This document shows, piece after piece, positions 1 to 13,855 of a stretch of 13,855 nt of DNA. The translations under genes were made by a program, and so were the position numbers. Under the pieces are notes generated by a model, which did no database searches, was not told the DNA's origin, and saw only the letters and a program-made list of their open reading frames with translations. The first letter of the stretch is position 1, and every line of letters begins with the position of its first letter. The stretch lies in UHGV virus genome UHGV-0141996; one strand, written 5' to 3'. This DNA comes from a virus.

Positions 1-15
1 GGTGTGTTTGAAAGT

Positions 16-39
16 GCGCGGGGGGGGTCATTCCCGCGC
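16..39 (-). terminator. Candidate hairpin downstream of the 50..964 minus-strand gene
   Basis: GC-rich inverted repeat GCGCGGG (16-22) / CCCGCGC (33-39) with a 10-nt loop, just 3' of the minus-strand stop at 50-52. The U-tract on the minus strand is poor (ACTTTCAAAC), so intrinsic-terminator status is uncertain. Confidence 0.3.
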
Positions 40-49
40 GTCCGGCGCT

Positions 50-964
50 TTATGGTAAGTATTTAAGTATTTCTGCTGCCCAGTTTACACGGTGGATGAC
101 ACGGGCATGGTGCAAGTTTCCGTCTAGTATTTCGGCTTTAGTTAGCTGGGATAACTGCTGCCAATTATTGTTAAGTATATAAGTTGCGTTATTACATTGT
201 GAGCTTTCTAGCACGTAAATGTTTTGGCCTGTGAACCCAAATATCACGTAGCCTTGGAACCCAGCTTGCCCAACCGCTACGAAATCTGGTTTTTTACTAT
301 TGATAAGTTCAAGTCTGCCTTCAACAACAGCGGTATTGCCCTTTCCCCTGATCTTAATAGCTGAAAGGATTTTTGAACCGATAGTACTCCAAGGCTGTTG
401 ACCCTGAGGCAGGAGGCTCCAGTTTAGTTTTATAGATTTACTTTTAACGATGGTATTAAGTTGGTCGTCAACAGTTTCGCACAACCCAAAAAGCTCTAAA
501 AAAAGATTAATGCAGTGAGCCACTAACTCTTTGTTGTTAGCTGTCAAACTTAGCTTTGGAGAGATGATCAACTTCTCCCCTTGCAGATTCTCTACAATCT
601 TTAACTCTATGCTTGGTGGAGGGGTGAGGATTCTCTTGTAGCGCTTATACTCAATTTCACGAGTGTCAGTAACTTCTTGAGTTGCGCCCCCTCCGATCCA
701 TTGCTTTCTAGTCCATGAAATTTGTCTGTATGCAGTTTCTTTAGGTGCTGTTTTGTCAGGTACTGATTTGCCATTAGCATTGAATCTGGTTATTGGCCCT
801 AAAATTTTGGGGAGGACTTCTTCACCTAAAGCTCTTTGACTTGAGAAACCAATAGAGTCCGTTTTCCCCGCATCTGGCAAAGAATGTGCAATGTAGATAT
901 CACGGCCATCAAAGTTAGGTATGTAATTATCAATATTTCGAATACGCTTTTTCTGAATAAGCAT
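50..964 (-). CDS. Hypothetical protein, 304 aa, AT-rich orphan; no recognisable motifs
   Basis: Uninterrupted 304-codon ORF with ATG start and a good Shine-Dalgarno (AAGGA, 7 nt upstream on the minus strand). Composition is visibly more AT-rich than the central operon. Hairpin immediately downstream. No catalytic or family motif recognised by eye. Confidence 0.7.
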   Translation of the reverse strand: MLIQKKRIRNIDNYIPNFDGRDIYIAHSLPDAGKTDSIGFSSQRALGEEVLPKILGPITRFNANGKSVPDKTAPKETAYRQISWTRKQWIGGGATQEVTDTREIEYKRYKRILTPPPSIELKIVENLQGEKLIISPKLSLTANNKELVAHCINLFLELFGLCETVDDQLNTIVKSKSIKLNWSLLPQGQQPWSTIGSKILSAIKIRGKGNTAVVEGRLELINSKKPDFVAVGQAGFQGYVIFGFTGQNIYVLESSQCNNATYILNNNWQQLSQLTKAEILDGNLHHARVIHRVNWAAEILKYLP

Positions 965-1802
965 GGATCGTTCCTTTTGATTTTATCTTACTGTTTACAT
1001 AACCAACCAAGCCGGGCACAATCGAGCCGTTAGAGACGATAGTGAGGCTAACAATCGTTATGAGTTTGCAGACTCATGGCGGTCATGCTTCATAGACCGG
1101 ATTCACGCAGGTGACTCCGGTTTTTTTATGCCCATCATTTATACATGGGCACAACATATAGGGTGTGTTAATAAGATTACCCCCTACATGTTCAGCATTC
1201 TAGTTAGGATTCTTTGCAGTACAAGGGTTGATTTTGAGGTTAAATTGAGGTTGTCAAAGGGAAATTTCGACCAACCCTACGTGCCGTAAGGCTTAGGCTG
1301 TATGTCAATGTTTCAGAAAAAAAAATGAAAATTTGATCGAGTGCTGATTTCTTTAGCACGAGAACATGAGATCGAACCAAAATATTGCAAAGTTTTGAAC
1401 AAAACTTGAACTGCCTCGTGTCTCCATAGCCAAGACGAATGCAGTTTAAATAAGCTAAGTCAGCTCTCAAAAGTCCTTTATGACCCGAACCAAAAATTGT
1501 ACCTCTTAAACCCCACCGCAAGCGGCTCTCCGGGGTTTGTGCGCATGGAGTAATGCGGTTGTACTGGGTATGTGCGCACAACCCTCTACAAGCCGCATTC
1601 TACCGTTAGCCTATAGCTGAATCCCCGGCTTGAAAAATTGCACGCTTATGGTTGCCCCTCCCTCAACTCTATAGCTCGCCCGCGCCCCCGTGCGCATGTG
1701 CGTGCCCGCGCGTCAGGGGTCGCTGAGAAAACCCTAAGATTTTGCTCATCCGAGGCAACCGTTGCAGGCGCGTGTTGCCGAGGGCACACTGCCAGTGTTT
1801 GA

Positions 1803-1908
1803 TGGTGTCATCAATCGTTCGATTCTTGCTACCTTCCTGAGTGATTACTATCTGGTGTCATCAATTTAGGGTTTGACTAAATGCTACCACCAATGCAATG
1901 ATGCTACC
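1803..1908 (+). promoter_or_regulatory. Repeat-bearing leader/promoter region upstream of the serine recombinase gene
   Basis: Exact 13-bp direct repeat TGGTGTCATCAAT at 1803-1815 and 1853-1865 (50 bp centre-to-centre). ATGCTACC at 1881-1888 and 1901-1908, plus TTGCTACC at 1826-1833. TTGACT -35-like hexamer at 1873-1878. SD GGAGAGGTG precedes the ATG at 1940. Confidence 0.35.
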
Positions 1909-1939
1909 GTTTTGTGATACCAGACGGGAGAGGTGAAGC

Positions 1940-2515
1940 ATGAGGACTTTTATCTACTGCCGCGTTTCAACACGCGAGCAGGATACGCAGAATCAGGTGC
2001 TGGCTATTGAGCGTGCCGGGTACACGGTGCCTGAGAGCAGGGTAATCAGCGAGGACATTTCCGGCAGCGTTCAGGCTATGCAGCGCCCTAAGTTTCGGGC
2101 GATGGTTGAGCATAAGCTGGAAGCGGGAGATCAGCTTGTCGTGCTGAAACTGGACAGGCTGGGGCGCGACAACATCGACGTGCAACAGACCATCGACATG
2201 CTGTTAGAACGTGGCGTGAAGGTGGTGTCTCTTGACCTGCCAGCGCGTGATCTGACTTCATCTGAGGGCAAGCTAATCCGCCAGATGTTTGGAGCTTTTG
2301 CTGAGTTCGAGCGAAACCGTATCCGTGAGAGGACGCTGGACGGGCTGGAGAAGGCGAAAGCCAATGGCGTTAAGCTGGGACGCAAGGAAGCCACCGACAC
2401 CACTGAAAAGGTGCTGGAGTTGCGGAGTGAGGGGCTGTCTCAATCGAAGGTAGCGAAGCGTCTCGGCGTTAGCGTGAGCACCGTTAAACGCCACTGGAAC
2501 AAGGGCGAGGAGTGA
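1940..2515 (+). CDS. Small serine recombinase (resolvase/invertase family), 191 aa
   Basis: N-terminal YCRVSTREQ motif with the catalytic serine. LVVLKLDRLGRD and FAEFERNRIRERT blocks align by eye with gamma-delta/Tn3 resolvase. C-terminal HTH (SQSKVAKRLGVSVSTVKRH). Strong SD. Confidence 0.9.
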   Translation: MRTFIYCRVSTREQDTQNQVLAIERAGYTVPESRVISEDISGSVQAMQRPKFRAMVEHKLEAGDQLVVLKLDRLGRDNIDVQQTIDMLLERGVKVVSLDLPARDLTSSEGKLIRQMFGAFAEFERNRIRERTLDGLEKAKANGVKLGRKEATDTTEKVLELRSEGLSQSKVAKRLGVSVSTVKRHWNKGEE

Positions 2516-3215
2516 TGGCCTACAACCGAATGAGGTGCTATGACTGGCCGTTACTGGGCTGTGGGTGATGGATGACCTACAGCTTTTGTATTAATTTCAG
2601 AGGGTTATGTTATGCGTAATATCATAACGATATGATTTATAATGTATTTTCGTATTACTTGCGGCTCTCGATGTGAAGAGGTGGCGGGGCTTTAGCCGTG
2701 CCAGACGATGAACATCGAGATCAGATTGTGAATGTGATTCATCACTGAACAATTCGAGGGATGGGGCAGGGGAAGGGATCAAAGGCTGCGTTGTCCAATC
2801 ACTAAGCTAGATTTGAAGCTGGTCAACACGTTAGTAGTATCTTTAAAGTTGCATTTTAAATACATGTACAAGAAAGGGTTCTTCCCTTACATCCCTTCTC
2901 CTAAATGTAGTTACGAGTGCTTCGCTCTCTTCACTTGCTGCGCTTCTCGCTATGCTCCAGCCCGCTCCATCGCCTTTGGCTCATTCCCGGACTTCGCCCG
3001 CTGTGATGCTCGGCCACTCTACGCAACCGTGCTTGCCGTGGCAGGCAACGCGGCGGGGATGTGTAGTGGAACGGTACTCTGTATCGGTATGATTACTGTA
3101 TTCAATCACATACTGGTATCAGTAGGTATCCTTCAAAACATCTTCATTCATTTCTGTATCGTTCAATCATCTTTCTTGTTCGTTTCCTTTCAGGTCTTAG
3201 CCGTTGGTCATTGGT

Positions 3216-3330
3216 CTTACTGCCTGCTGTGCTACTGCCAGCTATGGCACGCCGTCACGGTCTACTGTCTGTTACCTGTCCTACTGCCTTCACTGTCTGC
3301 CGTCTGTCAGTCCTACGGTCTGCCATCCGT
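3216..3330 (+). repeat. Iteron-like short repeat cluster in a pyrimidine-skewed ORF-poor region
   Basis: YTACTGYC-type motifs at 3216-3224 (CTTACTGCC), 3231-3239 (GCTACTGCC), 3261-3271 (TCTACTGTCTG) and 3281-3288 (CTACTGCC). CTGTCTG-type motifs at 3293-3308. Tandem CATCCGT CATCCGT at about 3324-3337. The plus strand is strongly C/T-rich. Confidence 0.4.
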
Positions 3331-3778
3331 CATCCGTTCGGCGCTCGCTTGTTTCGGCTGCGCCGCGCTCGCTCTGCGTATCTAGCGATACTATATCACT
3401 ATAGACACTTTCATAATTATATAATGATTACAGTAACTTATGTTTTCTGTTTTAAAAGCTACTAATAAGGAGATATAGAGCATTACTTACCCGCTTTTGA
3501 CCGACAAAAATCGCGTTGTTAAGTATTGCCAGCCCAGGCTCAATAAGGCTTAGCGAGGTGGTGGCTAAAAAATGAGCTAATGAAGGTATCTACTAAGGAG
3601 AAAGAATAACTCCCGAAGCGCGACAAACTCTCCGATTTTGAAAGTGACTATTAAGGCAGATAAAGACACTGACACTGTTGCTGACATGAAAACTTCTAAA
3701 AGGGCAGAGAGTCTGCCGAACCCGTACCGCTGACCCAACCTGAGCTAATACCTACCCCTATTTTCTGGAGATTTCACC

Positions 3779-5623
3779 ATGCCAACAAACCTACGCCGCC
3801 TGCTTGCGCAGGCTGCCGACGCTGACCCGCTCAATACTGCGGACGCAGATGTACAGCAAATGATCGCTGACGGGATTGTTATTCGACGTTCCAAGATATG
3901 CCCTGTAAAGCGTAAACCCGTTAAGGCGGCATACAACACAAAGACCGAAGAGTTTTATTACAATGCAGATGGCTCCGCGATGACCTTGCGGGAGTGGCGA
4001 ACGCTGCACGGTGTTCAACCGAAGAAACAAAAACAGCGCTCTGACACTGGGTTGCGGCAAGTCATCCAGCCCGGCGACGCGATTCACTGCCGACGCGCTG
4101 AGATTGAGCAATGGCTTAATAAGAAGCCCGCTCGTTATGTTGACCCGCTGCCGCCAGATTTTCCCGGTGTTCGCGTAGACGATGCCGCATTGAAACCGCG
4201 CGAGCACGCCGTGCCGGAAGCGACAACCGGACAGAATGCTTTTCTCAAAGCCTGCCGCGAGTTCCTGATTTGCGATGAGAAGACCATGCGCCGTATCAGT
4301 CGGGGCATGAACCAAATGGAAGCTATGCGCAACGCAGATTTCAAACGCTACGGAGACTCAGGGGAGTTTCGTCAATTGTGGTGTGGAGAGTCGAAGCCTA
4401 CCGAAGATAGATTTAATAGTTCTAATCATCATTGTGACCCGAACGGCTTGGCTGCTTCGCCGTCTGTGCCGCCACTGAATACTGCACCGTATGAGTTCCG
4501 CCCGCTGGCTCGCTGTGACCGAAACGCACGCGTTAGCCTGCTGCCACCTGATGGGCTGGAGTGGAGGCCGGGGCAGTTGTCTGTTGCTGATGCGATCTTT
4601 TCCCGTGGCAGTGATGTGCTTGCCGTACTGCCGACCGGGTATGGCAAAAGCGCCGCCTTCACTTATCCATTGATTTATGAGTCCCGCGCTGGCATTGGCC
4701 TGTCTGTAATCGTGGTTCCTACTAATACCCTTAAGCGTCAGATTCTCCGCCAGTTGCGGGAGGCTGGCATTCACGCTGTGGCCTTTGGCGATAAGCTACC
4801 GAGGCACCGCAACGCACAACAACTGGCGGGACTAGCAGCCGGGGCGTTCCGGGTTGCTGTTGTTTCGCCTGAACATCTGGTTCCGTCGAGTCAGGTTCTC
4901 GCGGCGCTGATGGCTTATGGCGTTGATCGTTTTATTATCGATGAGGCACACACGGTCAAAGACTGGGATTTCCGCCCAGCTTACGACGCAATGCAGCACA
5001 CACTACAGAATGCTTTTCCCTCGGCTCAGCGCTGCGTGTTTACGGCTACTCTACTACGTGAAAATGAGAGCGGTTTAATGGAGGCGCTGGGATGCCGTGG
5101 CGATTACGTTACATTCCGTGCTGATGTTGCTCGCGAGAATATCCAGTTGATTCCGGTCAGGCAGTGCCGCCAGCGATACCGCGCGGCTGTTGGTCTGGTC
5201 GAGGCTCTGCCAGAGGAAGAGAAGACGCTCATTCTAGTCAATGACCTTAAGACGTTGCGGGCGTACCTGAAACTCTTCGGCGACCGGGCGCGCCCATATC
5301 ACTCGAAGACGATGCACCTGAGCAACGAGGAACGCCACGCAAACGCTGAGTGGTTTGCCTCTGCGCCGGGCGCGATTCTGATTGCTACTAAAGCCTTCGG
5401 GCTGGGTGCTGATGTTCCTGATATCCGTAACGTTGTCGTGACATACGTTCCCGATGACTTGCCTGATCTCGTTCAGATGATTGGACGAGCCGGGCGCGAT
5501 GGGGAACCTGCCCGCGCTTTTCTGCTGTGGTCATCGCTGGCGCTGGATGTTGCTCCTGATGAGCTTGCTTACTTCTACCGCCCTGAAAACTGTAACTGGC
5601 AGTACATCGCTAAATACCTCTGA
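3779..5623 (+). CDS. RecQ-like superfamily-2 DNA helicase, 614 aa, with a roughly 280-aa N-terminal region of unknown function
   Basis: Helicase motif I LPTGYGKSAAF, motif II DEAH box FIIDEAHTV followed by DWDFRPAY (RecQ-like), FTATL, and motif VI QMIGRAGRDG. SD GGAG 9 nt upstream of the ATG. The N-terminal region has no recognisable primase or helicase motif. Confidence 0.85.
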   Translation: MPTNLRRLLAQAADADPLNTADADVQQMIADGIVIRRSKICPVKRKPVKAAYNTKTEEFYYNADGSAMTLREWRTLHGVQPKKQKQRSDTGLRQVIQPGDAIHCRRAEIEQWLNKKPARYVDPLPPDFPGVRVDDAALKPREHAVPEATTGQNAFLKACREFLICDEKTMRRISRGMNQMEAMRNADFKRYGDSGEFRQLWCGESKPTEDRFNSSNHHCDPNGLAASPSVPPLNTAPYEFRPLARCDRNARVSLLPPDGLEWRPGQLSVADAIFSRGSDVLAVLPTGYGKSAAFTYPLIYESRAGIGLSVIVVPTNTLKRQILRQLREAGIHAVAFGDKLPRHRNAQQLAGLAAGAFRVAVVSPEHLVPSSQVLAALMAYGVDRFIIDEAHTVKDWDFRPAYDAMQHTLQNAFPSAQRCVFTATLLRENESGLMEALGCRGDYVTFRADVARENIQLIPVRQCRQRYRAAVGLVEALPEEEKTLILVNDLKTLRAYLKLFGDRARPYHSKTMHLSNEERHANAEWFASAPGAILIATKAFGLGADVPDIRNVVVTYVPDDLPDLVQMIGRAGRDGEPARAFLLWSSLALDVAPDELAYFYRPENCNWQYIAKYL

Positions 5624-5660
5624 GTCGAAAGGCTCTCCCTGATTCTCTGGAGTTAATCAT

Positions 5661-6098
5661 ATGCCTGTTACCGAACATGCGCAGCGTCGTGCTGCGCGTG
5701 CGGATGCGCTCATCACCGCACAACTAGCCTTTGCCCTGAATGGGTACAACTGGGATGAACTGGCCGAACCTCATCGCAAGACCCTTAATCGTGAGGCCAT
5801 CATTAGCGAGGTATCTACACCGCTGGAGCGATATTGCCTGCTGAATGATTGCGAGCCGTGGGAGTGTCTGGCCGCTGTACTGAACCGCATGAAAAGGCCG
5901 GATGGCTCGCGTCGCTGGAAAGCCGTCCGGTTGTCCGACCGGGTTTTCAATGGCCGGGTGCATCCAGTGCGCAAGACTCCTGATGAAGTTTACGCCGCCA
6001 TTGCCCGCCGCTTGTTCCTGCCGAAGCCTGTGCATCAAGAAGTGATACAGCACATCCGTGCGCTTGGCTTGTTACCAGTTGGAGATAACCACCAATGA
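5661..6098 (+). CDS. Hypothetical protein, 145 aa
   Basis: ORF with GGAG SD 8 nt upstream. Stop overlaps the next start (ATGA at 6095-6098). Codon usage and GC match the operon. Confidence 0.6.
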   Translation: MPVTEHAQRRAARADALITAQLAFALNGYNWDELAEPHRKTLNREAIISEVSTPLERYCLLNDCEPWECLAAVLNRMKRPDGSRRWKAVRLSDRVFNGRVHPVRKTPDEVYAAIARRLFLPKPVHQEVIQHIRALGLLPVGDNHQ

Positions 6099-6304
6099 CG
6101 AAATCTGAATTTGAAAATGAAACATGGCGAATGAAGGGCTTGCTTCTTGGGGCGCTGATTCGCCGCCTTGAGGAAGATAAGGCTGGCGAGTCGCGCATGG
6201 TCGCAGCGGAGTTATCCAGTGCGGTCAACTTCCTTAAGGCCAACGCCGTAGAAGCACCGGACACATCATTCAACAACGTGTTCCCGGAGGATGACGAACA
6301 ATGA
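6095..6304 (+). CDS. Hypothetical small protein, 69 aa
   Basis: ATGA overlap with the upstream gene, GGAGA SD, and its stop overlaps the next start (ATGA at 6301-6304). Confidence 0.55.
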   Translation: MTKSEFENETWRMKGLLLGALIRRLEEDKAGESRMVAAELSSAVNFLKANAVEAPDTSFNNVFPEDDEQ

Positions 6305-6477
6305 CCCCTGAACAATTCAGACAATGGTTCGCCACGCTGCCACCGAACTATCAGAGCGCCGCACGCACCATGTACGACAACGCCCGCAAGTCGGGCATAC
6401 ATACCGCGTCAAGCCTTGCGCTGATTCACACGTTGGTTACTGACCAGATCAAATTTGATTCGGAGTTTAATTTATGA
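6301..6477 (+). CDS. Hypothetical small protein, 58 aa (below the ORF-track length cutoff)
   Basis: Hand-translated: ATG at 6301, TGA at 6475-6477, giving MTPEQFRQWFATLPPNYQSAARTMYDNARKSGIHTASSLALIHTLVTDQIKFDSEFNL. GGAGG SD upstream. ATGA overlaps at both ends, continuing the translational-coupling pattern. Confidence 0.45.
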   Translation: MTPEQFRQWFATLPPNYQSAARTMYDNARKSGIHTASSLALIHTLVTDQIKFDSEFNL

Positions 6478-7037
6478 CTTTGAGTATTACCGATATCCAG
6501 CGCATTAACGCGCTGGCTCATAAGCACCTAAAGAACAATGAAGAGATTGCAGCGGAGACAGGTCATACCCTGACCGATATTGATGCTGTAATCCGTGGCG
6601 TCTATGTCGATGACTTGGCCGAACATTGGAAAGACGATGCTGATATTACTCTGGCGGAGTACAACGCCATCCGCAGCCGCTATAAGCCCGGCAAGTTGCA
6701 CCGCGATACAGAGTTTATGATTGCCCGCGATATGCTGATTCGCCCTGAGACTGTGCTGGCTATCGCCCATTCCCGCTTTAGCAACGTCCACACGCACCCA
6801 GTGCCGAAAGCCGTCAAAGCAAAGCCGGAGAAAGCGAAAGTAGTGCGCAAGTTAGTGCTTACTGATTTAGATGAAATCCACAAGTTAGAGCGCTTCGGTT
6901 GGCCTGCTGCGGAGATCGCCGGGAAGCTGGGCGTCCCTGTTGAAGTCGTCGCGCATGTGCAACGCTGTCTGAGAAATCGTTGGTCGTACCCGGATACTCT
7001 GGAGTTTGTTAACTCCAAATTCAGCGAGGCTGAATGA
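6474..7037 (+). CDS. Hypothetical protein with C-terminal HTH-like segment, 187 aa
   Basis: ORF with GGAG SD. C-terminal LTDLDEIHKLERFGWPAAEIAGKLGVPVEVVAHV resembles an HTH/sigma-region-4-like DNA-binding segment. ATGA overlap with the next gene. Confidence 0.6.
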   Translation: MTLSITDIQRINALAHKHLKNNEEIAAETGHTLTDIDAVIRGVYVDDLAEHWKDDADITLAEYNAIRSRYKPGKLHRDTEFMIARDMLIRPETVLAIAHSRFSNVHTHPVPKAVKAKPEKAKVVRKLVLTDLDEIHKLERFGWPAAEIAGKLGVPVEVVAHVQRCLRNRWSYPDTLEFVNSKFSEAE

Positions 7038-7270
7038 TGGCAGAGAACGAACCGCTGCACCCCGCCGTTAACCCTGATCTCTACGTGAACCTTGACGAAC
7101 AACGCGAAGGATACGCTCCGATTGAATCACGGGGTTGGGATGTGCTGACGCAGAACCTGACCGGGGAAGGGCGAATCGACCCCAGCCAAACACTTAACCA
7201 GAATCCGAAACAACGCCCGCGCGGCTCCGTTGGTGAGCGTCGTTGGCTTCGTAAACGTAGATTACTTTAA
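7034..7270 (+). CDS. Hypothetical small basic protein, 78 aa
   Basis: ATGATG tandem start (7034 or 7037) with GAGG upstream. Arg/Lys-rich C-terminus. Confidence 0.5.
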   Translation: MMAENEPLHPAVNPDLYVNLDEQREGYAPIESRGWDVLTQNLTGEGRIDPSQTLNQNPKQRPRGSVGERRWLRKRRLL

Positions 7271-7282
7271 CGAGGAATTACC

Positions 7283-7522
7283 ATGAGCAAAACTATCGTA
7301 TTGCTGCCGCCACGCAAGAATACAGACTGGGCTGCACAATTAAAGCTGATTTCTGAATCGCTTGAGGTGAGTCAGGCAGACCTCGCCCACGCCTATCAGG
7401 TTGATCGTCGGGATATGGGTAAAGCGTATCACGGTGTGCGCAAACTGCCGGAACGTTGTGTGCCTGTTCATATGCTGTTGTTAGCGCAGGTACACGACTT
7501 TAGAGCATTATCAGGAGAATAA
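7283..7522 (+). CDS. Hypothetical small protein, possible HTH DNA-binding, 79 aa
   Basis: GAGGAA SD 5 nt upstream of the ATG. Central segment SQADLAHAYQVDRRDMGKAYHGVRKLPE is compatible with a Cro/XRE-like HTH; weak. Confidence 0.5.
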   Translation: MSKTIVLLPPRKNTDWAAQLKLISESLEVSQADLAHAYQVDRRDMGKAYHGVRKLPERCVPVHMLLLAQVHDFRALSGE

Positions 7523-7525
7523 TTT

Positions 7526-8254
7526 ATGTCTGACCAGAATGTTAATCCGTACCTTTCCGGTGCTGATACTGCATCGCAGCAATCGCCGTACATGGCTGCA
7601 CCTGTTGGCGCTGACAATGGCGCATCTCGCTTTAGCTCTGCGCCTGCTGATGCTGATTTCCTCCGTACCCAGCCCGTTAATGGCAATGATGGCGGCCAAT
7701 GGAATAATGGCAACATTGCTAATCAGCAAGACCAGAACGCGGACAGCGCCGGGGCGCAGGTGGGCGATACTATCCCCCTGATGGATGGAACAGCTATTGA
7801 GTACACCGCCGAGCTACAAGGGTTAATGGGGCAGTTTCACCAGTCTGTCGAAAGCCAGCTAGGGCAGGGGACAGTTGACGCGATGTTGCAGTACGCTGGC
7901 ACACTCGACGCTGGGACGCAATCCACCCTTGAACGTATGGTTATGTCTGGCGACCCTGCGCAGATGCAGCGGGCGGTTCAGTACCTGCAAGAACGTATGG
8001 CTGCTGGTTCTGCTTCCGGGTACGTTCCTGCACAGGGAAACCCATACGGCCAGCCTGCCGCGCAACCTGTCGGAATGTCACATGCTGAGTTTATAGCAGC
8101 GTATGACCAGCTTTCGCAGTGGGCGCAGCAATCAGGGTATGGCCCCGGCCATCGCCAGTACGACGAACAATACCGTGCTCTGGTTGCGCAGCGCTCCGCT
8201 GGCAAACGTGCTGGTCGCTTACGCCCAACGGTGGAATGCGCCCTGCAAGACTGA
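7526..8254 (+). CDS. Gln/Ala/Gly-rich low-complexity protein, 242 aa; possible scaffolding protein
   Basis: Strong SD AGGAGA. Low-complexity Q/A/G/D-rich composition with predicted helical C-terminal half. Sits immediately upstream of the capsid-like gene region, as scaffold genes do in T7-like and P22-like head modules. The functional call is positional and compositional only. Confidence 0.4.
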   Translation: MSDQNVNPYLSGADTASQQSPYMAAPVGADNGASRFSSAPADADFLRTQPVNGNDGGQWNNGNIANQQDQNADSAGAQVGDTIPLMDGTAIEYTAELQGLMGQFHQSVESQLGQGTVDAMLQYAGTLDAGTQSTLERMVMSGDPAQMQRAVQYLQERMAAGSASGYVPAQGNPYGQPAAQPVGMSHAEFIAAYDQLSQWAQQSGYGPGHRQYDEQYRALVAQRSAGKRAGRLRPTVECALQD

Positions 8255-8317
8255 GTGCGCACCAACCCGGTACTACCACACCAATCTAAGCGCATGAGTC
8301 CCCGCAAGCCGCATTCT
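8255..8317 (+). repeat. Intergenic GC-rich motif block related to the 1539-1601 block
   Basis: GTGCGCACCAACCC (8255-8268), GCGCATGAGT (8290-8299) and CAAGCCGCATTCT (8305-8317) recur in the same orientation at 1539-1601: GTGCGCATGGAGT, GTGCGCACAACCC (1572-1584) and CAAGCCGCATTCT (1589-1601, exact 13-mer). Confidence 0.45.
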
Positions 8318-8360
8318 GCGCGGCATCTGAAAGCCTGTTTTTAATTAACCGAGGTTCGTA

Positions 8361-8774
8361 ATGAGTACCTGTAATTTCCATGCCGTGGTGCGTGTCGCTG
8401 ACGTGCGCCCGGATTTCGCCTTGCCGCTGGGTAGATGCGACCACATTTACCCTGAGCGTGTGCAGCACGTTTTCAATCCAGACGAAGCGGTTTATATCGT
8501 TGCCCGGTCTGCCACATCCGGCACCCGCACATCTGGCGTTAGCCGTGGGCTTTCCCCTGTGCTGCCGCCGAAGATGGCCGAGCGGATGCGCGAACGTAAA
8601 CGGCACGAGAAGAATCGAGCCAGACCCCGCAAGGTGATCACTGAGGCGATACGCGCTGACATTATCGATCGCTCTGCAAAAGGCCAGAAGAATCGTTACA
8701 TTGCAAGCAAGGTTGGCGTGTCTGAAACCTCTGTGCGGAAGGTGTTGAACATGGCGCGTATGAGTGCGCACTAA
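8361..8774 (+). CDS. HTH-domain protein, 137 aa; possible regulator or packaging-associated DNA-binding protein
   Basis: GAGGT SD. Basic Arg/Lys-rich middle (RMRERKRHEKNRARPRK) and C-terminal HTH-like segment (IIDRSAKGQKNRYIASKVGVSETSVRKVLN). Confidence 0.55.
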   Translation: MSTCNFHAVVRVADVRPDFALPLGRCDHIYPERVQHVFNPDEAVYIVARSATSGTRTSGVSRGLSPVLPPKMAERMRERKRHEKNRARPRKVITEAIRADIIDRSAKGQKNRYIASKVGVSETSVRKVLNMARMSAH

Positions 8775-8993
8775 TGCAAGGTAATACGTTCGCCTTACTT
8801 CACGCGCACTAACCCCTGAGAACCGCGCCAGCTCTGGCCTCAAAACGCCCATTTCGGGGCACCTCATCCCTCTTAATCGATACCGTTCTGAATCCTGCCT
8901 CGGCGGGAGGATTACGCACGCCCGCGCCATGACGATGGCCGGGCTTATCTCGTCAGTGAATCCGCTGGCACAACCTACGTAGGAGTTTTACAT

Positions 8994-9989
8994 ATGGCCG
9001 ATAACATTTACTCGCCTGACCAGTTCCGCCCACATTATGGCGGGGTGGAATCTGACAATGATATTCACATCGAGGCTTATGACCGGGATGTCCAGACCCG
9101 TTTAGAGTCCAAATCCGTATTTCTGGCCGAGGGGCTGTCTACATACAGGCCGCTGAAAGCCAGCAACCAATACCGCATTGATCGCCTGAGTGGTGATCTT
9201 GAGGTGAAGGGCAGAACCGCAGGGCAATCGCTGGAGCCTACCGCCGTTAAGTCGGACAAGTTGGTTATCTCTGTGGATACGCTGAGCTATATCCGCATCC
9301 CGATTGACTATCAGGATGACTGGACAGCTCCCACCTTTCGCGCAGAGCTGAGCCGCAATATCGGTACTGCTCACGCTAAATTCTACGACGAAGCGCACAC
9401 CATCCAGCTAATCAAAGCGACTGACTTCGTACCGCCGCCGACACTGCAACCAACGTTTAACCCGCTTACGGATAATGTTGTCTCGCTCGACCTGACAGCG
9501 GGGAGCGAAGAGGATGCAGCTAACGAACTGGTTCACGCTATCAAAGCTGCTGTTAATCGATTCCTGACTGAGAAAGATATTCCGGTGGCGGAGCTGGTAC
9601 TGCTTATCGACCCGGCTTGGTTCAGCATCCTGATGGAACATAAGAAGCTGATGAACGTCCGTTACAGCCGGGATAGTGGCAACGATTACGCATGGCGTCG
9701 TGTTGGCTATGTCGCTGGGGTGCGAGTTATCGAGCTGAATAGTTACCCGCAGGAAGCCATTACCGGGCATGAACTGGGCGCTGATTATGACGTTACCGCA
9801 GAGGAAGCGCTGACGAGGGCGACGCTGTTTAAACCTTCCTCGGTACTGTTGACGGTCGAAGCGCAGAGCGTCATCAATCGCCAGTGGGATGATGAAAGCG
9901 AAATGACGATGGTGATGGACTCATATCGCCTGTTCAACGTTGGGCTGCGTCGTCCTGACTGCGTTATCAATTTCCGACAAGCTGCATAA
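8994..9989 (+). CDS. Putative major capsid protein, 331 aa, T7 gp10-like by eye
   Basis: Strong SD AGGAG. Length and block pattern resemble T7 gp10 from memory: KLVISVDTL..IPIDYQDD...RAEL..NIG.AHA and a C-terminal VLLIDPAWFSIL ... GVRVIEL ... LF..S.V.L.V block. No protease gene adjacent, consistent with a scaffold-dependent capsid. Confidence 0.55.
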   Translation: MADNIYSPDQFRPHYGGVESDNDIHIEAYDRDVQTRLESKSVFLAEGLSTYRPLKASNQYRIDRLSGDLEVKGRTAGQSLEPTAVKSDKLVISVDTLSYIRIPIDYQDDWTAPTFRAELSRNIGTAHAKFYDEAHTIQLIKATDFVPPPTLQPTFNPLTDNVVSLDLTAGSEEDAANELVHAIKAAVNRFLTEKDIPVAELVLLIDPAWFSILMEHKKLMNVRYSRDSGNDYAWRRVGYVAGVRVIELNSYPQEAITGHELGADYDVTAEEALTRATLFKPSSVLLTVEAQSVINRQWDDESEMTMVMDSYRLFNVGLRRPDCVINFRQAA

Positions 9990-10005
9990 CTGGAGGGGCT
10001 GAGTC

Positions 10006-10515
10006 ATGGTTAATGATGCTTACGCCCCTGAGCTGTTGCGATCCCTTTTCCTGTATGACCCGGTGACAGGTCGCCTGCACCATAAAGCTAACCGACGCCG
10101 GGTTAAGGCTGGCTCCTATGCTGACTCCACCCAGCGAGCTGATGGCTATCGTCAAGTTGCCCTGCGACTTGATGGCAAGCAGTACCAGCTAAAAGCCCAT
10201 CGCGTGGCATGGATTCTTGCGCATGGCGCTATTCCTCACGGTAAGCAGATCGATCACATCAACGGTATCCGTGACGACAACCGCCTATGCAATCTGCGTT
10301 TGGTTACGCAGCGGGAAAACGACCAGAACCGACGCAAGGCAAGGGGATATAGCTGGAATAAAGGCAGTAGCAAATGGGAGGCTTACATACGCGTTGATGG
10401 TGTACTCCGTCACCTTGGCTTATTTACTACCGAAGCGGCGGCGCGTGCTGCCTATCTAAAAGCTAAAGCCAGATACCATCCCTCAACGCCAGCCGATTTG
10501 TTGCAGGCTGCCTAA
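10006..10515 (+). CDS. HNH endonuclease with C-terminal AP2 domain, 169 aa
   Basis: HNH motif HRVAWILAHGAIPHGKQIDHINGIRDDNRLCNLRLVTQRENDQN. AP2-like segment YSWNKGSSKWEAYIRVDGVLRHLGLFTTEAAARAAYLKAKARYH. SD GGAGGGG. Confidence 0.85.
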   Translation: MVNDAYAPELLRSLFLYDPVTGRLHHKANRRRVKAGSYADSTQRADGYRQVALRLDGKQYQLKAHRVAWILAHGAIPHGKQIDHINGIRDDNRLCNLRLVTQRENDQNRRKARGYSWNKGSSKWEAYIRVDGVLRHLGLFTTEAAARAAYLKAKARYHPSTPADLLQAA

Positions 10516-10533
10516 TCCTCGGAGGTTCCATAT

Positions 10534-10959
10534 ATGGCTGATGAAAAGCCGATTAGAGCGCTGGCAGATGATGACCCACGCCGCCAGCGGTACGCTGAAC
10601 TGATGGCGCAGGCTGGCCGCATGACTATTCCCCGACTGCATCCGGGCGATGCTAATAGTGTTATGAGCCAACTTGCGACGATGCTCGGCGCACCTGTCCC
10701 GATAGTCGGTGCTATGACTGAGCACGCCGCTGCATGGCGTGCCTGTATGCTGGAGCAAGGGCTTGGCGATCTTCTGGATGGCTTGAGTAAACAGGTGCTG
10801 ACCATCTTCTTTCTGCTCTGCTGGAGAGACAGCGCCTTGCGATTGGCGGGTAAGCAAAAGGAACGGCTTACAGCGGCCAGCGAGGGTTTGACCATTGAGC
10901 AATACCGGGCGATGCACCCGGCTTACAGAGAGAATAAAGAAGATGATAACCACGATTAA
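10534..10959 (+). CDS. Hypothetical protein, 141 aa, in the position often occupied by a small terminase subunit
   Basis: Strong SD GGAGG 8 nt upstream. Lies immediately downstream of the HNH gene. No recognisable motif; the small-terminase suggestion is positional inference only. Confidence 0.55.
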   Translation: MADEKPIRALADDDPRRQRYAELMAQAGRMTIPRLHPGDANSVMSQLATMLGAPVPIVGAMTEHAAAWRACMLEQGLGDLLDGLSKQVLTIFFLLCWRDSALRLAGKQKERLTAASEGLTIEQYRAMHPAYRENKEDDNHD

Positions 10960-11242
10960 ATTAAGGTGGCGGTACATCGAGCCGCCGCCAATGACTGGCG
11001 CACTCGCTGACCTGAAACAGTGGGTAATGGATACCGGAGAGCCTGAGCTGGAAGCTGAATTTCGTAAGCTGCTGGGGCTAATGCGCCGCAACGGTATCAG
11101 TGACGAACGCGTTAATGCGATGGCTGATGAGCTTTATGTTCTGGTTTGCCAACGCCAGTGCGAAGAATACGAAGCCTGCAAGCGGGCTGCGTCTGACAAT
11201 GGAGACTTTGAATCATGGTTACACGGACAGACCAACTACTAA
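10943..11242 (+). CDS. Hypothetical small protein, about 99 aa; start ambiguous (alternative upstream start at 10895)
   Basis: The ORF track starts at 10895 and overlaps the upstream gene by 65 bp. The in-frame ATG at 10943 (MITTIKLRW...) is preceded by AAAGAAG and gives a minimal overlap. Cys-containing segment CQRQCEEYEAC. Confidence 0.45.
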   Translation: MITTIKLRWRYIEPPPMTGALADLKQWVMDTGEPELEAEFRKLLGLMRRNGISDERVNAMADELYVLVCQRQCEEYEACKRAASDNGDFESWLHGQTNY

Positions 11243-11640
11243 GAAAAGCGATGCGGGACTATCTGGAACACCTCGGCAACATGCCGTTGGCTGAACGGAT
11301 TACAAATGCTGCTGTATTCGAAGATGTGTATCGCTTCCTGTTGAATGGTTCCGGTCGGCTGGAGTTGCGCCGCGCTGATGTGGCCGCTGTTCGTATCTTC
11401 CTGTGGAATTACCAATACCGACGCTGTGCGGTGACAGGTAAGCCGCTGCGCCTTACGTCTGCCGTGCTAGATCACTGCCACCGAACCGGGCGCGTGCGTG
11501 CTGTGGTGCATCGTTCTGCTAACGCTGCTGAGGGAGGCCGCTACGTTGGGCGGACGTGTGGTGTTAGCGTTGCGAACTTAAGGGCTATGGTTGGCAGCTA
11601 TCGCAAGCAATACACCGGTATTGGCGTGTTATATCCATAA
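11215..11640 (+). CDS. Endonuclease VII-like (HNH superfamily) protein, 141 aa
   Basis: Segment CAVTGKPLRLTSAVLDHCHRTGRVRAVVHRSANAAEG matches the Endonuclease_7 pattern (C..C-like ... DH.H.TG.VR ... N...G) with substitutions. GGAG 9 nt upstream. Last gene of the plus-strand operon. Confidence 0.55.
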   Translation: MVTRTDQLLRKAMRDYLEHLGNMPLAERITNAAVFEDVYRFLLNGSGRLELRRADVAAVRIFLWNYQYRRCAVTGKPLRLTSAVLDHCHRTGRVRAVVHRSANAAEGGRYVGRTCGVSVANLRAMVGSYRKQYTGIGVLYP

Positions 11641-11642
11641 TA

Positions 11643-11661
11643 GCGGGGTAATAAACCCCGC
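11643..11661. terminator. Candidate bidirectional terminator hairpin between convergent gene blocks
   Basis: Perfect 7-bp stem GCGGGGT / ACCCCGC with AATAA loop, 3 bp after the plus-operon stop (11640) and 21 bp after the minus-strand gene stop (11682). Flanking A/T-rich sequence on both sides, but no long U-run. Confidence 0.5.
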
Positions 11662-11681
11662 CGAAATAGTAGCGTAGCCAC

Positions 11682-12584
11682 TCAAACAGGAATGTTGTAG
11701 TAATGACAAATGGCATTAGTTAGTAGAGCTGGTGCAGCAGATGCTGCAATATTTAGCGTTCCCGCATATGCTTTACCAATCATATCACCAAGCCACCCTC
11801 CAACTTTTCCTCCTAAATTATCCATAGTGGTGGGCACTGGAGATTCTTGTATAGCTTGCTGAAGCGTTGTTATGTCTGCTTCTGAAACTCCCCATTCTTT
11901 AAGTTGTTTCTCCAGCGAATTAAAATCTCCTGCTATAATCGTGTTATTCTGGTTAATGTCTCCAGTATTCCCAGCACCAATACTGCCTGCATTATTAACT
12001 GCGCCATTAAAAATATTAGTATTGTTAACCGTCATAGGAGCGACCTCTTTTTCTGCCTGAGTGAACAATAACCCTTCACCCATAATCCCCTGTTTTTCTA
12101 ATTCAAGTGACCAATCAAGAATCTTGTTTCTTACAGTTGTGACTATGTGAGCAAATTTACCAGAACTAAAGAACCAGCATATTTCAGGTCTTGAATGTTG
12201 ATCGTGATATAACATTTCAGCCATTTCTAGTGGGATAGGGAGCCTTATATTTCCTTTTGTGCCCTCTGCTCGTATCATTGATGCTATAGATTCAGTGAGT
12301 GTATAAGTAGTAAACTTACGCATAATCTTTGCGCTTATGTTACCAAGATCAACTGGAATCCAGCCGTTGAAAGGGTTATAGGCTTTTAACTGACCGTGCC
12401 CAGTTCTATATTCTGGGGCTGATGCAATTGTAGGGTAGCCATTCAATTCGTGCTCAATCCAGCCTGTAACATCTTCCAGGCCAAGCTTGACGGCTATTAC
12501 TTTAGCTTTCATTAAAAGAGCGATAATATCAGTGTTAGGATCGCTTGCAAGAGCTTGAAGTTCAAGAACTGGTGAGTTAGCCAT
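11682..12584 (-). CDS. AT-rich cargo gene, 300 aa; putative AbiTii-like abortive-infection protein with Asn/Gly-rich C-terminal half
   Basis: Intact ORF with strong SD (TAAGGA 6 nt upstream on the minus strand). N-terminus (LELQALASD..IIALLMKAKVIAVKLGLEDVTGWIEHELNGY) resembles AbiTii-type domains as I recall them; unverified. C-terminal half is N/G-rich low complexity ending in a hydrophobic segment. Located between the integrase and the phage-like operon; markedly AT-rich. Confidence 0.45.
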   Translation of the reverse strand: MANSPVLELQALASDPNTDIIALLMKAKVIAVKLGLEDVTGWIEHELNGYPTIASAPEYRTGHGQLKAYNPFNGWIPVDLGNISAKIMRKFTTYTLTESIASMIRAEGTKGNIRLPIPLEMAEMLYHDQHSRPEICWFFSSGKFAHIVTTVRNKILDWSLELEKQGIMGEGLLFTQAEKEVAPMTVNNTNIFNGAVNNAGSIGAGNTGDINQNNTIIAGDFNSLEKQLKEWGVSEADITTLQQAIQESPVPTTMDNLGGKVGGWLGDMIGKAYAGTLNIAASAAPALLTNAICHYYNIPV

Positions 12585-12603
12585 TTCAAGTCCTTAGTAG
12601 TGT

Positions 12604-12631
12604 TTTGATAAGATATCTTACCCTTATCAAA
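12604..12631. promoter_or_regulatory. Palindromic candidate operator in the leader of the AbiTii-like gene
   Basis: Perfect 12-bp palindrome TAAGATATCTTA (12609-12620) nested in a 9-bp inverted repeat TTTGATAAG (12604-12612) / CTTATCAAA (12623-12631), 20-50 bp upstream of the minus-strand start codon at 12584. Confidence 0.35.
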
Positions 12632-12671
12632 CTGTGCAGTCTAAGGTTGGTCGGTCAAACTCACCTTTAAG

Positions 12672-13829
12672 TTATTTGCTTATTTCATCATTTGTGATTT
12701 GCTCGACATACTTCCTCGTCTCTATAGGAGAAGCTGCATTTTTCGAGTAAGTTTTGAAGCTCTCTGTACTCCCGCGCTCATGACCGACGAGCAGGGCAAT
12801 ACGATCCTCTGGTACTTGAGCACGGTCGAGCTGTTGCACAAACGCATGGCGGAGTGAGTGAAACACTTTTCTCTCTGCGGCAGGTTCGCCAAGCGCTTTG
12901 CGCTTCGCCCGTGTGAACTGCTGGGTGTGCCACGTTGAACGCTTTCCGTCTGCCCGGTCTGTGATTGAGGCGTGATAGAACAGAAAACCGCTATGTGTGG
13001 TCTTGAGCAACGACTTCACGAGAGGGATTAGCTTGCTGTGTACTGGGACGATTCGTGCCGCGCTCTTGGTCTTCCCCTCGGTGATCTCAAAGCACAAAAC
13101 GCCCTCGATGGTTTTAATACTGCTCTCACGCAGCGTACATATTTCATTGATCCGCATACCGCTGTAAGCACCAATAGCCGTTACCGCCTTCATCTCGTCA
13201 TCAAGTAAGGTATAGATCTTTGCCAGCTCTCCCGGTGCGAAGACTTCATAGCTGACCTTGCTGCTTTTTGCTTCGAGCGCATGACCACGCCAAGGATTGT
13301 CCTGTGGTGCATCGTGATAGCGATTGCGTGCCAAATCCCAAATCTGTGCCAGTGCGCTTATATAGTTCTGGATGGTTTGCGGCGCTCGCTCAGTTTTGAG
13401 CTTATCTAACCAGCCTGTAACTATGGATCGATTAATATCCCGCAACTGAATATCTTTCTTTTTCAGGTGGGTTAACAGCACCTCTACGGCTTTGTTGGTC
13501 TTGGATAGCGTGGTTAGCTTTCTCTTCTCACTGTATTGGAGAAGATACAGATCGCGCATTTTAAGTAGGGAAGGGCAAGCCTGAACCGATGCACCAAATG
13601 ATGCGGGGGCTTCCTTAGCATACACACTGACACGGCGTAGCTCATCAATGATTTGATCTACGGATGAGCCGCCTTGCGGCTTAAGCAGATTCCGTAAGCG
13701 AGTCCATTCCAGAGCAATAGCATCGCGAAACAAACGCGCTTGCCGTATGTCTCGTGTCCCTGTGCTTTTCATAAAGTAGCGCTTCCCTTGGAACAGGTGG
13801 CGCATGTAGATGGGAATAGCTATCCGCAC
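12672..13829 (-). CDS. Tyrosine recombinase / phage-type integrase, up to 385 aa; start ambiguous (GTG at 13829, ATG at 13805 or 13772)
   Basis: Tyrosine-recombinase motifs: Arg in GMRINEICTLR, HSLRHAF (His-x-x-Arg), LLVGHERGSTESFKTYSK (His and catalytic Tyr). The ORF track begins with GTG. The internal ATG at 13772 is preceded by AAGGGAAG and would give 366 aa. Confidence 0.9.
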   Translation of the reverse strand: MRIAIPIYMRHLFQGKRYFMKSTGTRDIRQARLFRDAIALEWTRLRNLLKPQGGSSVDQIIDELRRVSVYAKEAPASFGASVQACPSLLKMRDLYLLQYSEKRKLTTLSKTNKAVEVLLTHLKKKDIQLRDINRSIVTGWLDKLKTERAPQTIQNYISALAQIWDLARNRYHDAPQDNPWRGHALEAKSSKVSYEVFAPGELAKIYTLLDDEMKAVTAIGAYSGMRINEICTLRESSIKTIEGVLCFEITEGKTKSAARIVPVHSKLIPLVKSLLKTTHSGFLFYHASITDRADGKRSTWHTQQFTRAKRKALGEPAAERKVFHSLRHAFVQQLDRAQVPEDRIALLVGHERGSTESFKTYSKNAASPIETRKYVEQITNDEISK

Positions 13830-13855
13830 GAGGTAATTCCCGCAGGGATCTAAAA

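Follow-up and report, generated by a model that had tools for sequence, protein, structure and literature searches.

We analysed a 13,855-nt stretch of the virus genome UHGV-0141996 (called the window here, always at its full length), which is almost the whole of an integrative island of ~15 kb found in enterobacterial chromosomes. Positions 3779–11640 hold a tight block of co-oriented plus-strand genes, which encode a helicase, six small conserved open reading frames (ORFs), a scaffold-like protein, a helix-turn-helix (HTH) protein, a capsid protein, an HNH_3 endonuclease, two small ORFs and an endonuclease VII. The 331-aa product of the gene at 8994–9989 (plus strand), which an earlier interpretation made from the letters alone (hereafter the sequence-only reading) had taken for a major capsid protein, proved to be a full-length capsid protein of the Autographiviridae type with an HK97 fold. 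It matched PHROG 267 “major head protein” at 2.9e-69 and showed 55–57% identity with Bonnellvirus coliphage capsids, its closest relatives (57%), across 98% of its length; the island capsid protein of Escherichia coli E2348/69 is WP_000774673. Its residues 1–324 aligned to residues 1–328 of the podophage capsid chain 23sf_I at 1.9e-78; chain 8eld_A aligned at 9.7e-75, and three further solved capsid proteins beyond 23sf_I matched at 1e-56 to 1e-75. On this homology, we regard the capsid assignment as secure.

The 242-aa protein encoded upstream of it (7526–8254, plus strand) had been called scaffold-like, and this assignment also held, through its C-terminal part. It matched PHROG 1018 “head scaffolding protein” at 7e-7. 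A direct tblastn search with this scaffold against phages returned no match, and a comparison of profiles was needed: in hhalign, a profile of five island scaffolds aligned at 94% (E 1.4e-7) with five scaffolds of phiKMV type, over the last ~100 residues of these. The N-terminal part is unrelated to phage scaffolds, and the protein is short compared with the 411-aa Bonnellvirus scaffold. The copy in the window ends (8207–8254) in an 11-aa extension, LRPTVECALQD, placed after the ...KRAGR with which the four other aligned copies (226–232 aa) end; because only the C-terminus is homologous to phage scaffolds, this particular copy may be impaired or altered.

A third gene of phage type was overlooked in the sequence-only reading, whose heading excludes terminase genes and has to be qualified for the small subunit. 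The ORF at 6095–6304 (plus strand, 69 aa) resembles the N-terminal ~55 residues of T7 gp18-type small terminases. It matched PF11123 DNA_Packaging_2 at 3e-4 (21.3 bits against a cut-off of 27.5, profile positions 12–47 of 79), and the best of the other island copies reached 3.5e-5, also below the cut-off; the match to PHROG 891 “terminase small subunit” had a value of 0.021. A tblastn search pointed to a 100-aa ORF directly upstream of the large terminase gene of Providencia phage MTT, to which the 69-aa protein aligned by BLASTP at 5e-8 (20 of 54 residues identical). The small terminase (TerS) of phage Lidtsur matched five island copies at 45–51% identity over 50–53 aa, and the profile of the island family aligned with that of phage small terminases at 94% (E 1.3e-7). 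All island copies lack the C-terminal third of the phage protein. These comparisons support the view that the 69-aa protein is a shortened relative of the T7 gp18-type small terminase rather than a full member of the family.

Beyond these three, we found no further structural or packaging genes of such a phage. Every coding-strand ORF of at least 58 aa in the window was compared with Pfam and PHROGs, and none matched a portal, large terminase or tail protein. We then searched 13 chromosomal loci from five genera (the window and 12 others that included up to 10 kb of flank) by tblastn with 16 proteins of Lidtsur, among them the portal, tube, core and fibre proteins, the two subunits of the terminase, the RNA and DNA polymerases, the primase and the helicase. 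These queries recovered the capsid gene alone, except that five loci also gave the small-terminase-like piece; nothing in the window or the 12 related loci matched the RNA polymerase, DNA polymerase, portal, tail tube, core proteins or large terminase. The scan also took in a genuine phage contig (L021), in which portal and tail tube were both recovered, and this served as the positive control. The earlier statement that portal, large terminase and tail genes are missing was thus upheld across all 13 loci and their flanks.

The limits of the island could be fixed in complete genomes. The window is 95% identical to a region of Escherichia coli E2348/69, and 61 of the 5426 complete genomes of E. 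coli contain a match. The island of E2348/69 sits immediately 3′ of tRNA-Leu(CAA) (leuX), and the last 31 nt of the tRNA gene recur 15,061 bp downstream, just past the integrase gene, as an att repeat. Core genes (ahr, yjgR and lptFG) form the left flank and host restriction genes the right one. The DNA to the left of the window, where the sequence-only reading had suggested looking for portal, terminase and tail genes, is the tRNA-Leu gene followed by ahr, yjgR and lptFG in E. coli, with no head-tail module. Six att-bounded copies, from six genomes of Escherichia, Enterobacter and Trabulsiella, measured 14,627–15,400 bp. The window falls short of the island by ~0.5 kb on the left and ~0.2 kb on the right, so that the att sites lie just outside both its ends. 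Its right end is occupied by a tyrosine integrase gene (12672–13855, minus strand; PF00589, 5.3e-17), of which the window lacks the first ~28 nt and beyond which attR lies; the E2348/69 gene is 1212 nt long, with attR 134 nt past its start. The island also includes positions 1–3778, with cargo, two phage-derived non-coding segments and a resolvase gene, so the extent of 3779–13829 first given for the element was too short.

Comparison of the loci revealed a conserved family. Synteny is kept in Escherichia, several species of Enterobacter, Kluyvera, Kosakonia and Trabulsiella, with a mosaic pattern of identity. All copies share ~13 co-oriented core genes, none of them interrupted in the copies compared. 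The order persists even in a divergent copy from Enterobacter hormaechei (L004), where shared proteins are only 37–58% identical (capsid 58.5%, the most conserved protein; helicase 42%; integrase 37%) and only the HNH gene has moved, to a position upstream of the helicase; among the other copies the capsid protein is 94–98% identical. The core genes are under purifying selection, with pairwise dN/dS of 0.1–0.3 overall, including 0.09–0.20 for the capsid, 0.08–0.20 for the scaffold, 0–0.16 for the 69-aa gene and, for the helicase, which is present in all copies, 0.12–0.16 in 10 informative comparisons and 0.32 in one near-identical pair.

These data bear on the idea that the locus is what decay has left of a temperate prophage of T7-like type, with only some head genes and the genome ends still present. 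Integrase-bearing T7-like prophages exist, and the capsid, the scaffold, the terminase-like gene, the endonuclease VII and the terminal DNA described below are all of Autographiviridae type, as such an origin would predict. Decay would, however, have had to leave the same ~13 genes in the same order and at the same size in 13 loci of five genera, without a fragment of an RNA polymerase, DNA polymerase, portal, large terminase or tail gene in any of them, and with core genes that are uninterrupted and constrained (dN/dS 0.1–0.3). Moreover, Bonnellvirus genomes offer no counterpart to most of the core genes, among them those for the helicase and the small ORFs. We consider this origin highly improbable.

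A low-stringency DNA comparison with Lidtsur gave two collinear short matches besides the capsid gene, and in this way two non-coding segments shared with phages came to light. The first, motif 1 (1623–1702, plus strand), is common to Bonnellvirus and LIMEzero phages, and its core at 1624–1667 reads CCCGGCTTGAAAAATTGCACGCTTATGGTTGCCCCTCCCTCAAC. It was 74–80% identical over ~80 nt to 13 Bonnellvirus records (best E 1e-8); in the 2.3 Gb of phage DNA searched nothing else of ~80-nt length matched, and the remaining matches were a 30-nt piece in three P2-like records. Motif 1 is present in every island copy. Its 44-nt core is at least 90% identical in all leuX-type copies, five of which have unrelated flanks, and the divergent L004 copy is 76% identical over 82 nt. 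In phages it starts ~50 nt past the last late gene and, in Lidtsur, is single-copy; in the linear record of Pantoea phage LIMEzero a homologue lies at nt 4–67, directly after the last ORF. By position, motif 1 is a candidate genome-end or packaging recognition site.

In two P2-like contigs from IMG/VR (L109 2867–3392 and L110 2235–2760) and in the P2-EC53 and R18C records, DNA next to the tail-fibre genes holds the endonuclease VII region of the island in truncated form (84% identity) and, ~140 nt away, an exact 26-nt piece of motif 1, in an order that differs from the island's. This may be a captured piece in a P2 hot spot or hint at a wider role of motif 1.

The second segment, region 2 (3212–3441, plus strand, 230 nt), is homologous to the genome-end region of the phages just upstream of their early promoters. 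It was 84–94% identical to 15 Bonnellvirus records, and its 176-nt core (3266–3441) was 98.3% identical to altidsur 10603–10777, with two base differences and one gap; the capsid genes of the same pair are only ~65–75% identical in DNA. The phages have region 2 ~400 nt downstream of motif 1, and three strong early promoters of sigma-70-like type follow it immediately. Both segments stand in the same order and orientation in island and phage, and the island has a resolvase gene in between. In its variable stretch, region 2 comes in alleles that pair with phage alleles: that of E2348/69 with glasur, and those of the window and the Kluyvera copy with altidsur and Kc261. Motif 1 and region 2 are thus copies of the stretch that separates the last late gene from the early promoters in the putative helper phages, where the helper's terminal repeats would lie. 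The records of glasur, Kc261 and LIMEzero contain no copies of a terminal repeat.

Within region 2, a 29-nt phage-promoter-like element (3387–3415) recurs in inverted orientation just downstream of the altidsur RNA polymerase gene, with a weaker copy upstream of the replication genes; annotated phage-specific promoters of LIMEzero stand at corresponding positions. The part shared by altidsur and Lidtsur at internal sites (ATGAAAGT...) reads on the gene strand and, because of this, the element in the island and at the phage left end probably points leftward through the terminal region. By analogy with T7, one may hypothesise that the helper RNA polymerase acts at this element in replication priming or concatemer processing. 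We also considered the 9-mer TCACTATAG (3396–3404) as a T7-type promoter for the gene block and discarded it, since the 9-mer alone is not significant and a comparison with altidsur and Lidtsur and with the annotated promoters of LIMEzero suggests the opposite orientation; within the island family it is confined to copies with region 2. A direct-repeat search for multi-copy phage promoters in Lidtsur and the window yielded nothing usable, and a scan for sigma-70 promoters and terminators showed no excess over shuffled sequences. In altidsur (L028 31183–31293 and 17150–17222), two tandem copies of ATAGTGATATGTATCA directly follow the stop codon of the RNA polymerase gene; their complementary strand carries CACTATAG, the T7-group promoter core, aimed back into the polymerase gene, which could be antisense regulation or coincidence. 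A 20-nt unit at the end of region 2, TAATGATTACAGTAACTTAT (3422–3441), occurs once in the island, twice, 60–80 nt apart, in altidsur (L028 10758–10777 and 10837–10856) and in Kc261, and as two near-copies in glasur. It resembles an iteron and may mark an origin or a protein-binding site.

The shared non-coding DNA might also have nothing to do with packaging, being instead the product of a recent chance recombination or a regulatory or replication element, in an island spread by generalised transduction or conjugative mobilisation. A recent exchange would fit the 98% identity of region 2, which is absent from 6 of the 13 loci, and the promoter-like element and repeat unit in it could mark an origin rather than a packaging site. 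Yet motif 1 is found in every copy, even where both flanks are unrelated, at 74–80% identity to phages; this persistence at a lower identity argues for long-term selection and against recent transfer. Both segments also keep phage order and orientation, and no relaxase, oriT or conjugation gene was found among the window ORFs in the Pfam and PHROG scans. This explanation therefore seems very unlikely to us.

Taken together, the island has integration functions of its own and defined ends (a tyrosine integrase, the 31-nt att repeat and six bounded copies), an incomplete virion and packaging set (capsid, scaffold-like and shortened small-terminase genes only), and a molecular link to a helper, in the form of two non-coding segments shared with Bonnellviruses and of capsid and terminase genes of their type. 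We put the probability at about three in four that the window covers nearly all of an integrative satellite of ~15 kb that uses lytic podophages of the Bonnellvirus type (Autographiviridae, 42 kb) as its helpers. The sequence-only reading had anticipated the outline of this, a capsid-encoding satellite of a different capsid lineage that would need a helper for portal, terminase and tail, and it is strengthened by the constant size between att sites, the synteny, the purifying selection, the small-terminase-like gene and the shared genome-end DNA. With less assurance, we find it fairly probable that the island represents the first recognised satellite family of virulent Autographiviridae, with an unprecedented division of labour: it would supply only its own shell (capsid and shortened scaffold) and shortened small terminase, take portal, large terminase, core and tail from the helper, and be recognised by the helper machinery because its DNA, with a resolvase gene in between, mimics the terminal-repeat region of the helper. 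Alleles of this mimic would track helper lineages. Such tracking of different helper lineages would imply ongoing co-evolution of satellite and helper. We found no published description of this island family or of any Autographiviridae satellite in a literature search that covered few of the subscription journals.

According to this satellite model, infection by a Bonnellvirus would trigger excision of the island by its integrase and its amplification, carried out by the RecQ-like helicase, by the helper replication machinery acting on the phage-derived segment (the promoter-like element beside AT-rich DNA), or by both. Island capsid and scaffold would assemble on helper portals, probably into smaller shells of the T=4 class. 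We suggest this class because the island has a constant 0.35 of the helper genome length; a T=4 shell is calculated to have ~0.43 of the volume of a T=7 shell, and P4 with P2 and SaPI with 80alpha show the same ~0.35 ratio of satellite to helper length. The helper large terminase would be directed to the island copy of the genome-end signals and would cut and package island DNA, with the 69-aa small-terminase-like protein redirecting or blocking the helper small terminase and the endonuclease VII resolving branched DNA for packaging. Helper core and tail proteins would complete the particle, and the two variable slots beside the att sites would carry defence cargo, AbiTii in the case of the window.

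Several observations weigh against this interpretation. The small-terminase matches each fall below curated thresholds. Region 2 is detectable in only 5 of the 13 loci and partial in two more, and the upstream regions of other variants (L006 and L004) had no match to a phage terminal region in our collection. The Bonnellvirus records we examined do not annotate physical genome ends, and for this reason a packaging-signal role of motif 1 and region 2 is deduced from their position. The promoter-like element probably faces away from the gene block. Motif 1 does not appear strictly specific to Bonnellvirus-type phages, as its 30-nt piece is also found in P2-like phages. Finally, the fit of the island capsid and scaffold to a helper portal is presumptive, given that the capsid is only 57% identical to that of the putative helper and the scaffolds are related at the C-terminus alone. 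The island is also present on two IMG/VR contigs, which does not amount to a demonstration of encapsidation.

An alternative is a fixed defence island that is never packaged, in which capsid, scaffold and shortened terminase act as dominant-negative decoys against Bonnellviruses and the phage-derived DNA titrates phage factors or is triggered by them. A small-terminase homologue without its C-terminal third is what one would expect of an inhibitor, the capsid protein has diverged from the helper's, the island carries recognised defence cargo, and known satellites also interfere with their helpers. Decoys alone would leave unexplained the integrase and att sites, the size of 14.6–15.4 kb despite cargo turnover, the spread over five genera with swapping of integrases and att sites, and the retention of both genome-end flanks in phage order. 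Interference and mobilisation are, moreover, not exclusive. We judge a purely defensive, immobile island unlikely, and retain a Bonnellvirus-dependent satellite as the preferred interpretation.

We next compared the island with described satellites. By gene content it appears to behave as a satellite and yet to lack the defining features of each described family, which suggests a new family within a known kind of element. It resembles the capsid-forming phage-inducible chromosomal islands (cf-PICIs) in being an integrative satellite of ~15 kb with its own HK97-fold capsid and an HNH gene and with a helper for the rest of the virion. The cf-PICIs encode a protease, portal, head-tail connectors, small and large terminases and HNH along with an int-alpA-pri arrangement, and borrow only tails, from temperate siphophages (PMC10690885, PMC13612085). 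The island differs in having no portal, protease, connector, large terminase, AlpA or primase, in a capsid of the T7/phiKMV lineage and in its apparent helpers, which are lytic podophages. No ORF had a Pfam or PHROG match to a portal, head protease or head-tail connector, and tblastn found no portal. Of the int-alpA-pri/rep backbone only the integrase was found, with no AlpA, primase or Rep domain, and the sole gene of replication type is the RecQ-family helicase.

With P4 (helper P2) and the SaPI-type PICIs (helper 80alpha) the island shares tRNA integration, a length of ~0.35 of the helper genome, a packaging signal copied from the helper, putative in the island, or a small terminase for redirection, and hot spots for defence genes; P4 also integrates at leuX. 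These satellites, however, remodel the helper capsid through Sid or CpmAB and encode no capsid protein, whereas the island does. None of psu, sid, delta, the alpha primase(-helicase), a cos site, alpA or pri-rep was detected in the window with Pfam, PHROGs and NCBIfam. PLE of Vibrio cholerae (helper ICP1) and the PICMIs of Vibrionaceae are alike in exploiting virulent phages. PLE is described as placing an external scaffold on the helper coat, and PICMIs as having no capsid genes and being packaged as concatemers (PMC10803314). Their gene sets are unrelated to the island's, and their helpers are not T7-like podophages. For the PLE genes (RepA, TcaP, NixI) the PHROG and Pfam scans of the window gave no hint, no dedicated comparison having been made, and the host clade differs.

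The Streptomyces satellites MiniFlayer and MulchRoom likewise encode capsid and scaffold proteins, and they also encode a portal, small and large terminases and a head-to-tail adaptor, without replication genes (PMC10690885). Their lineages and the island's are unrelated. A parallel for the non-coding segments comes from plasmid transduction by T7, to which the island is similar in carrying homologues of both flanks of the helper terminal region. As Chung and Hinkle reportedly found in 1990, a phage origin and the concatemer junction suffice for T7 to replicate and package the DNA that carries them. That was a laboratory construct, whereas the arrangement in the island is natural, has a resolvase gene between the flanks and is known here from its sequence.

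To our knowledge, the phages with known satellites are temperate ones and a small number of virulent myo- or siphophages. Should the proposed dependence on Bonnellviruses be correct, strictly lytic T7-like phages, which are favoured for therapy and biotechnology, could mobilise chromosomal islands that carry defence genes (AbiTii, restriction-modification, toxins). The island would also offer a natural system for the co-assembly of a foreign capsid and scaffold with the portal of another genome, help to account for gaps in the host range of Bonnellvirus-type phages among the ~1% of E. coli and the Enterobacter, Kluyvera and Kosakonia strains that carry it, and provide a new set of markers absent from current satellite finders. 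The proposal is readily testable, since its candidate helpers exist as phage isolates and the carriers include the prototype enteropathogenic E. coli strain E2348/69 as well as the type-culture strain Kluyvera ascorbata ATCC 33433. A mobilome study of Enterobacter cloacae assigned a few “prophages” to the Autographiviridae and obtained only P4-like, PICI and cf-PICI calls from SatelliteFinder (PMC13612085); these Autographiviridae “prophages” may be islands of the present family.

Among the remaining genes, the helicase (3779–5623, plus strand) opens the long block and belongs to the RecQ family of superfamily 2, with DEAD and Helicase_C domains. Its residues 261–585 match RecQ structures at 1.9e-30, the N-terminal 260 aa have no assignment, and the NCBIfam recQ_fam match falls below the cut-off. 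The PADLOC model PDLC02858 “DpdF” aligned with the island helicase across the whole model at 920 bits; because of this full-model match, the DpdF model appears to have been built from the island helicase family, and defence-system finders may mis-call these islands as partial Dpd systems.

The two nucleases downstream differ in how well their first assignments fared. For the supposed HNH-AP2 endonuclease (10006–10515, plus strand), the HNH part stood, as a homing-type HNH_3 enzyme (PF13392, 9e-19; PHROG 99, 6.7e-56), and the AP2 part did not, since Pfam AP2 was not reached at E ≤ 0.01 and an AP2-like C-terminal signature was seen by eye only. The accompanying argument, that an HNH gene near packaging genes points to cos-type packaging, does not apply: the gene is of homing type, varies in position (upstream of the helicase in L004) and adjoins no large terminase gene, and we accordingly ruled it out as a cos-packaging factor. 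We know of no HNH-assisted cos packaging in T7-type phages. The endonuclease VII-like junction-resolving nuclease (11215–11640, plus strand), by comparison, was identified as proposed, with a PF02945 score of 27 bits above the cut-off of 23.6 and a PHROG 423 match at 9e-16, and its gene is kept in all loci.

The two recombinases show signs of exchange. The serine recombinase of resolvase/invertase type (1940–2515, plus strand; PF00239 at 1.8e-36, with HTH_7) always lies between motif 1 and the helicase and occurs in two allelic forms, with identities of 96–98% or 26–36%. In L004 and L015 the integrase is replaced by one that is 37–39% identical, and the fetched flank of neither contains a tRNA-Leu. 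Two divergent resolvase and integrase alleles (96–98% versus 26–39%) in otherwise similar islands (loci L014–L020) point to modular exchange. Cargo is variable on both sides. The slot between endonuclease VII and the integrase holds an AbiTii abortive-infection gene in the window (11682–12584, minus strand; PF18864, 4.8e-40; PADLOC AbiTii, 4e-44) and, in other copies, one of two different restriction-modification sets or a YafO toxin. The slot beside attL likewise varies: in the window it contains a 304-aa gene (50–964, minus strand) with no Pfam, PHROG, PADLOC or NCBIfam match, which is 100% identical in L002, L013 and L014 and gives way to other genes in E2348/69 and further loci.

The small genes of the block are mostly unassigned. 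Those for 145 aa (5661–6098; no family match, only partly conserved in L004), 58 aa (6301–6477; L004 included), 187 aa (6474–7037; a weak C-terminal HTH, PHROG 3855 at 0.002) and 78 and 79 aa (7034–7270 and 7283–7522), all on the plus strand, occur in all loci. We considered the small ORFs at 7034–7522 as a counterpart of the small virion protein encoded ahead of the Lidtsur portal gene and found no similarity. The 137-aa HTH protein (8361–8774, plus strand) matched HTH_23 at 4e-4, below the cut-off, and PHROG 836 “late transcriptional activator” at 0.0015, and is possibly a regulator. Its gene lies outside the universal core, being undetected in L004, L006, L016 and L018–L020; in the two of those loci with gene calls, a different ORF fills the slot. 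Two further plus-strand genes (10534–11242; 141 aa and 99–115 aa) have no family match, and L004 keeps the second and not the first. An Rfam search gave no credible RNA. Two long ORFs are almost certainly not genes: one of 214 aa on the minus strand (8286–8930), antisense to the HTH gene, and one of 190 aa on the plus strand (2813–3385), of low complexity. The latter sits in the phage-derived non-coding region, and some phage records annotate “hypothetical proteins” over the equivalent terminal region.

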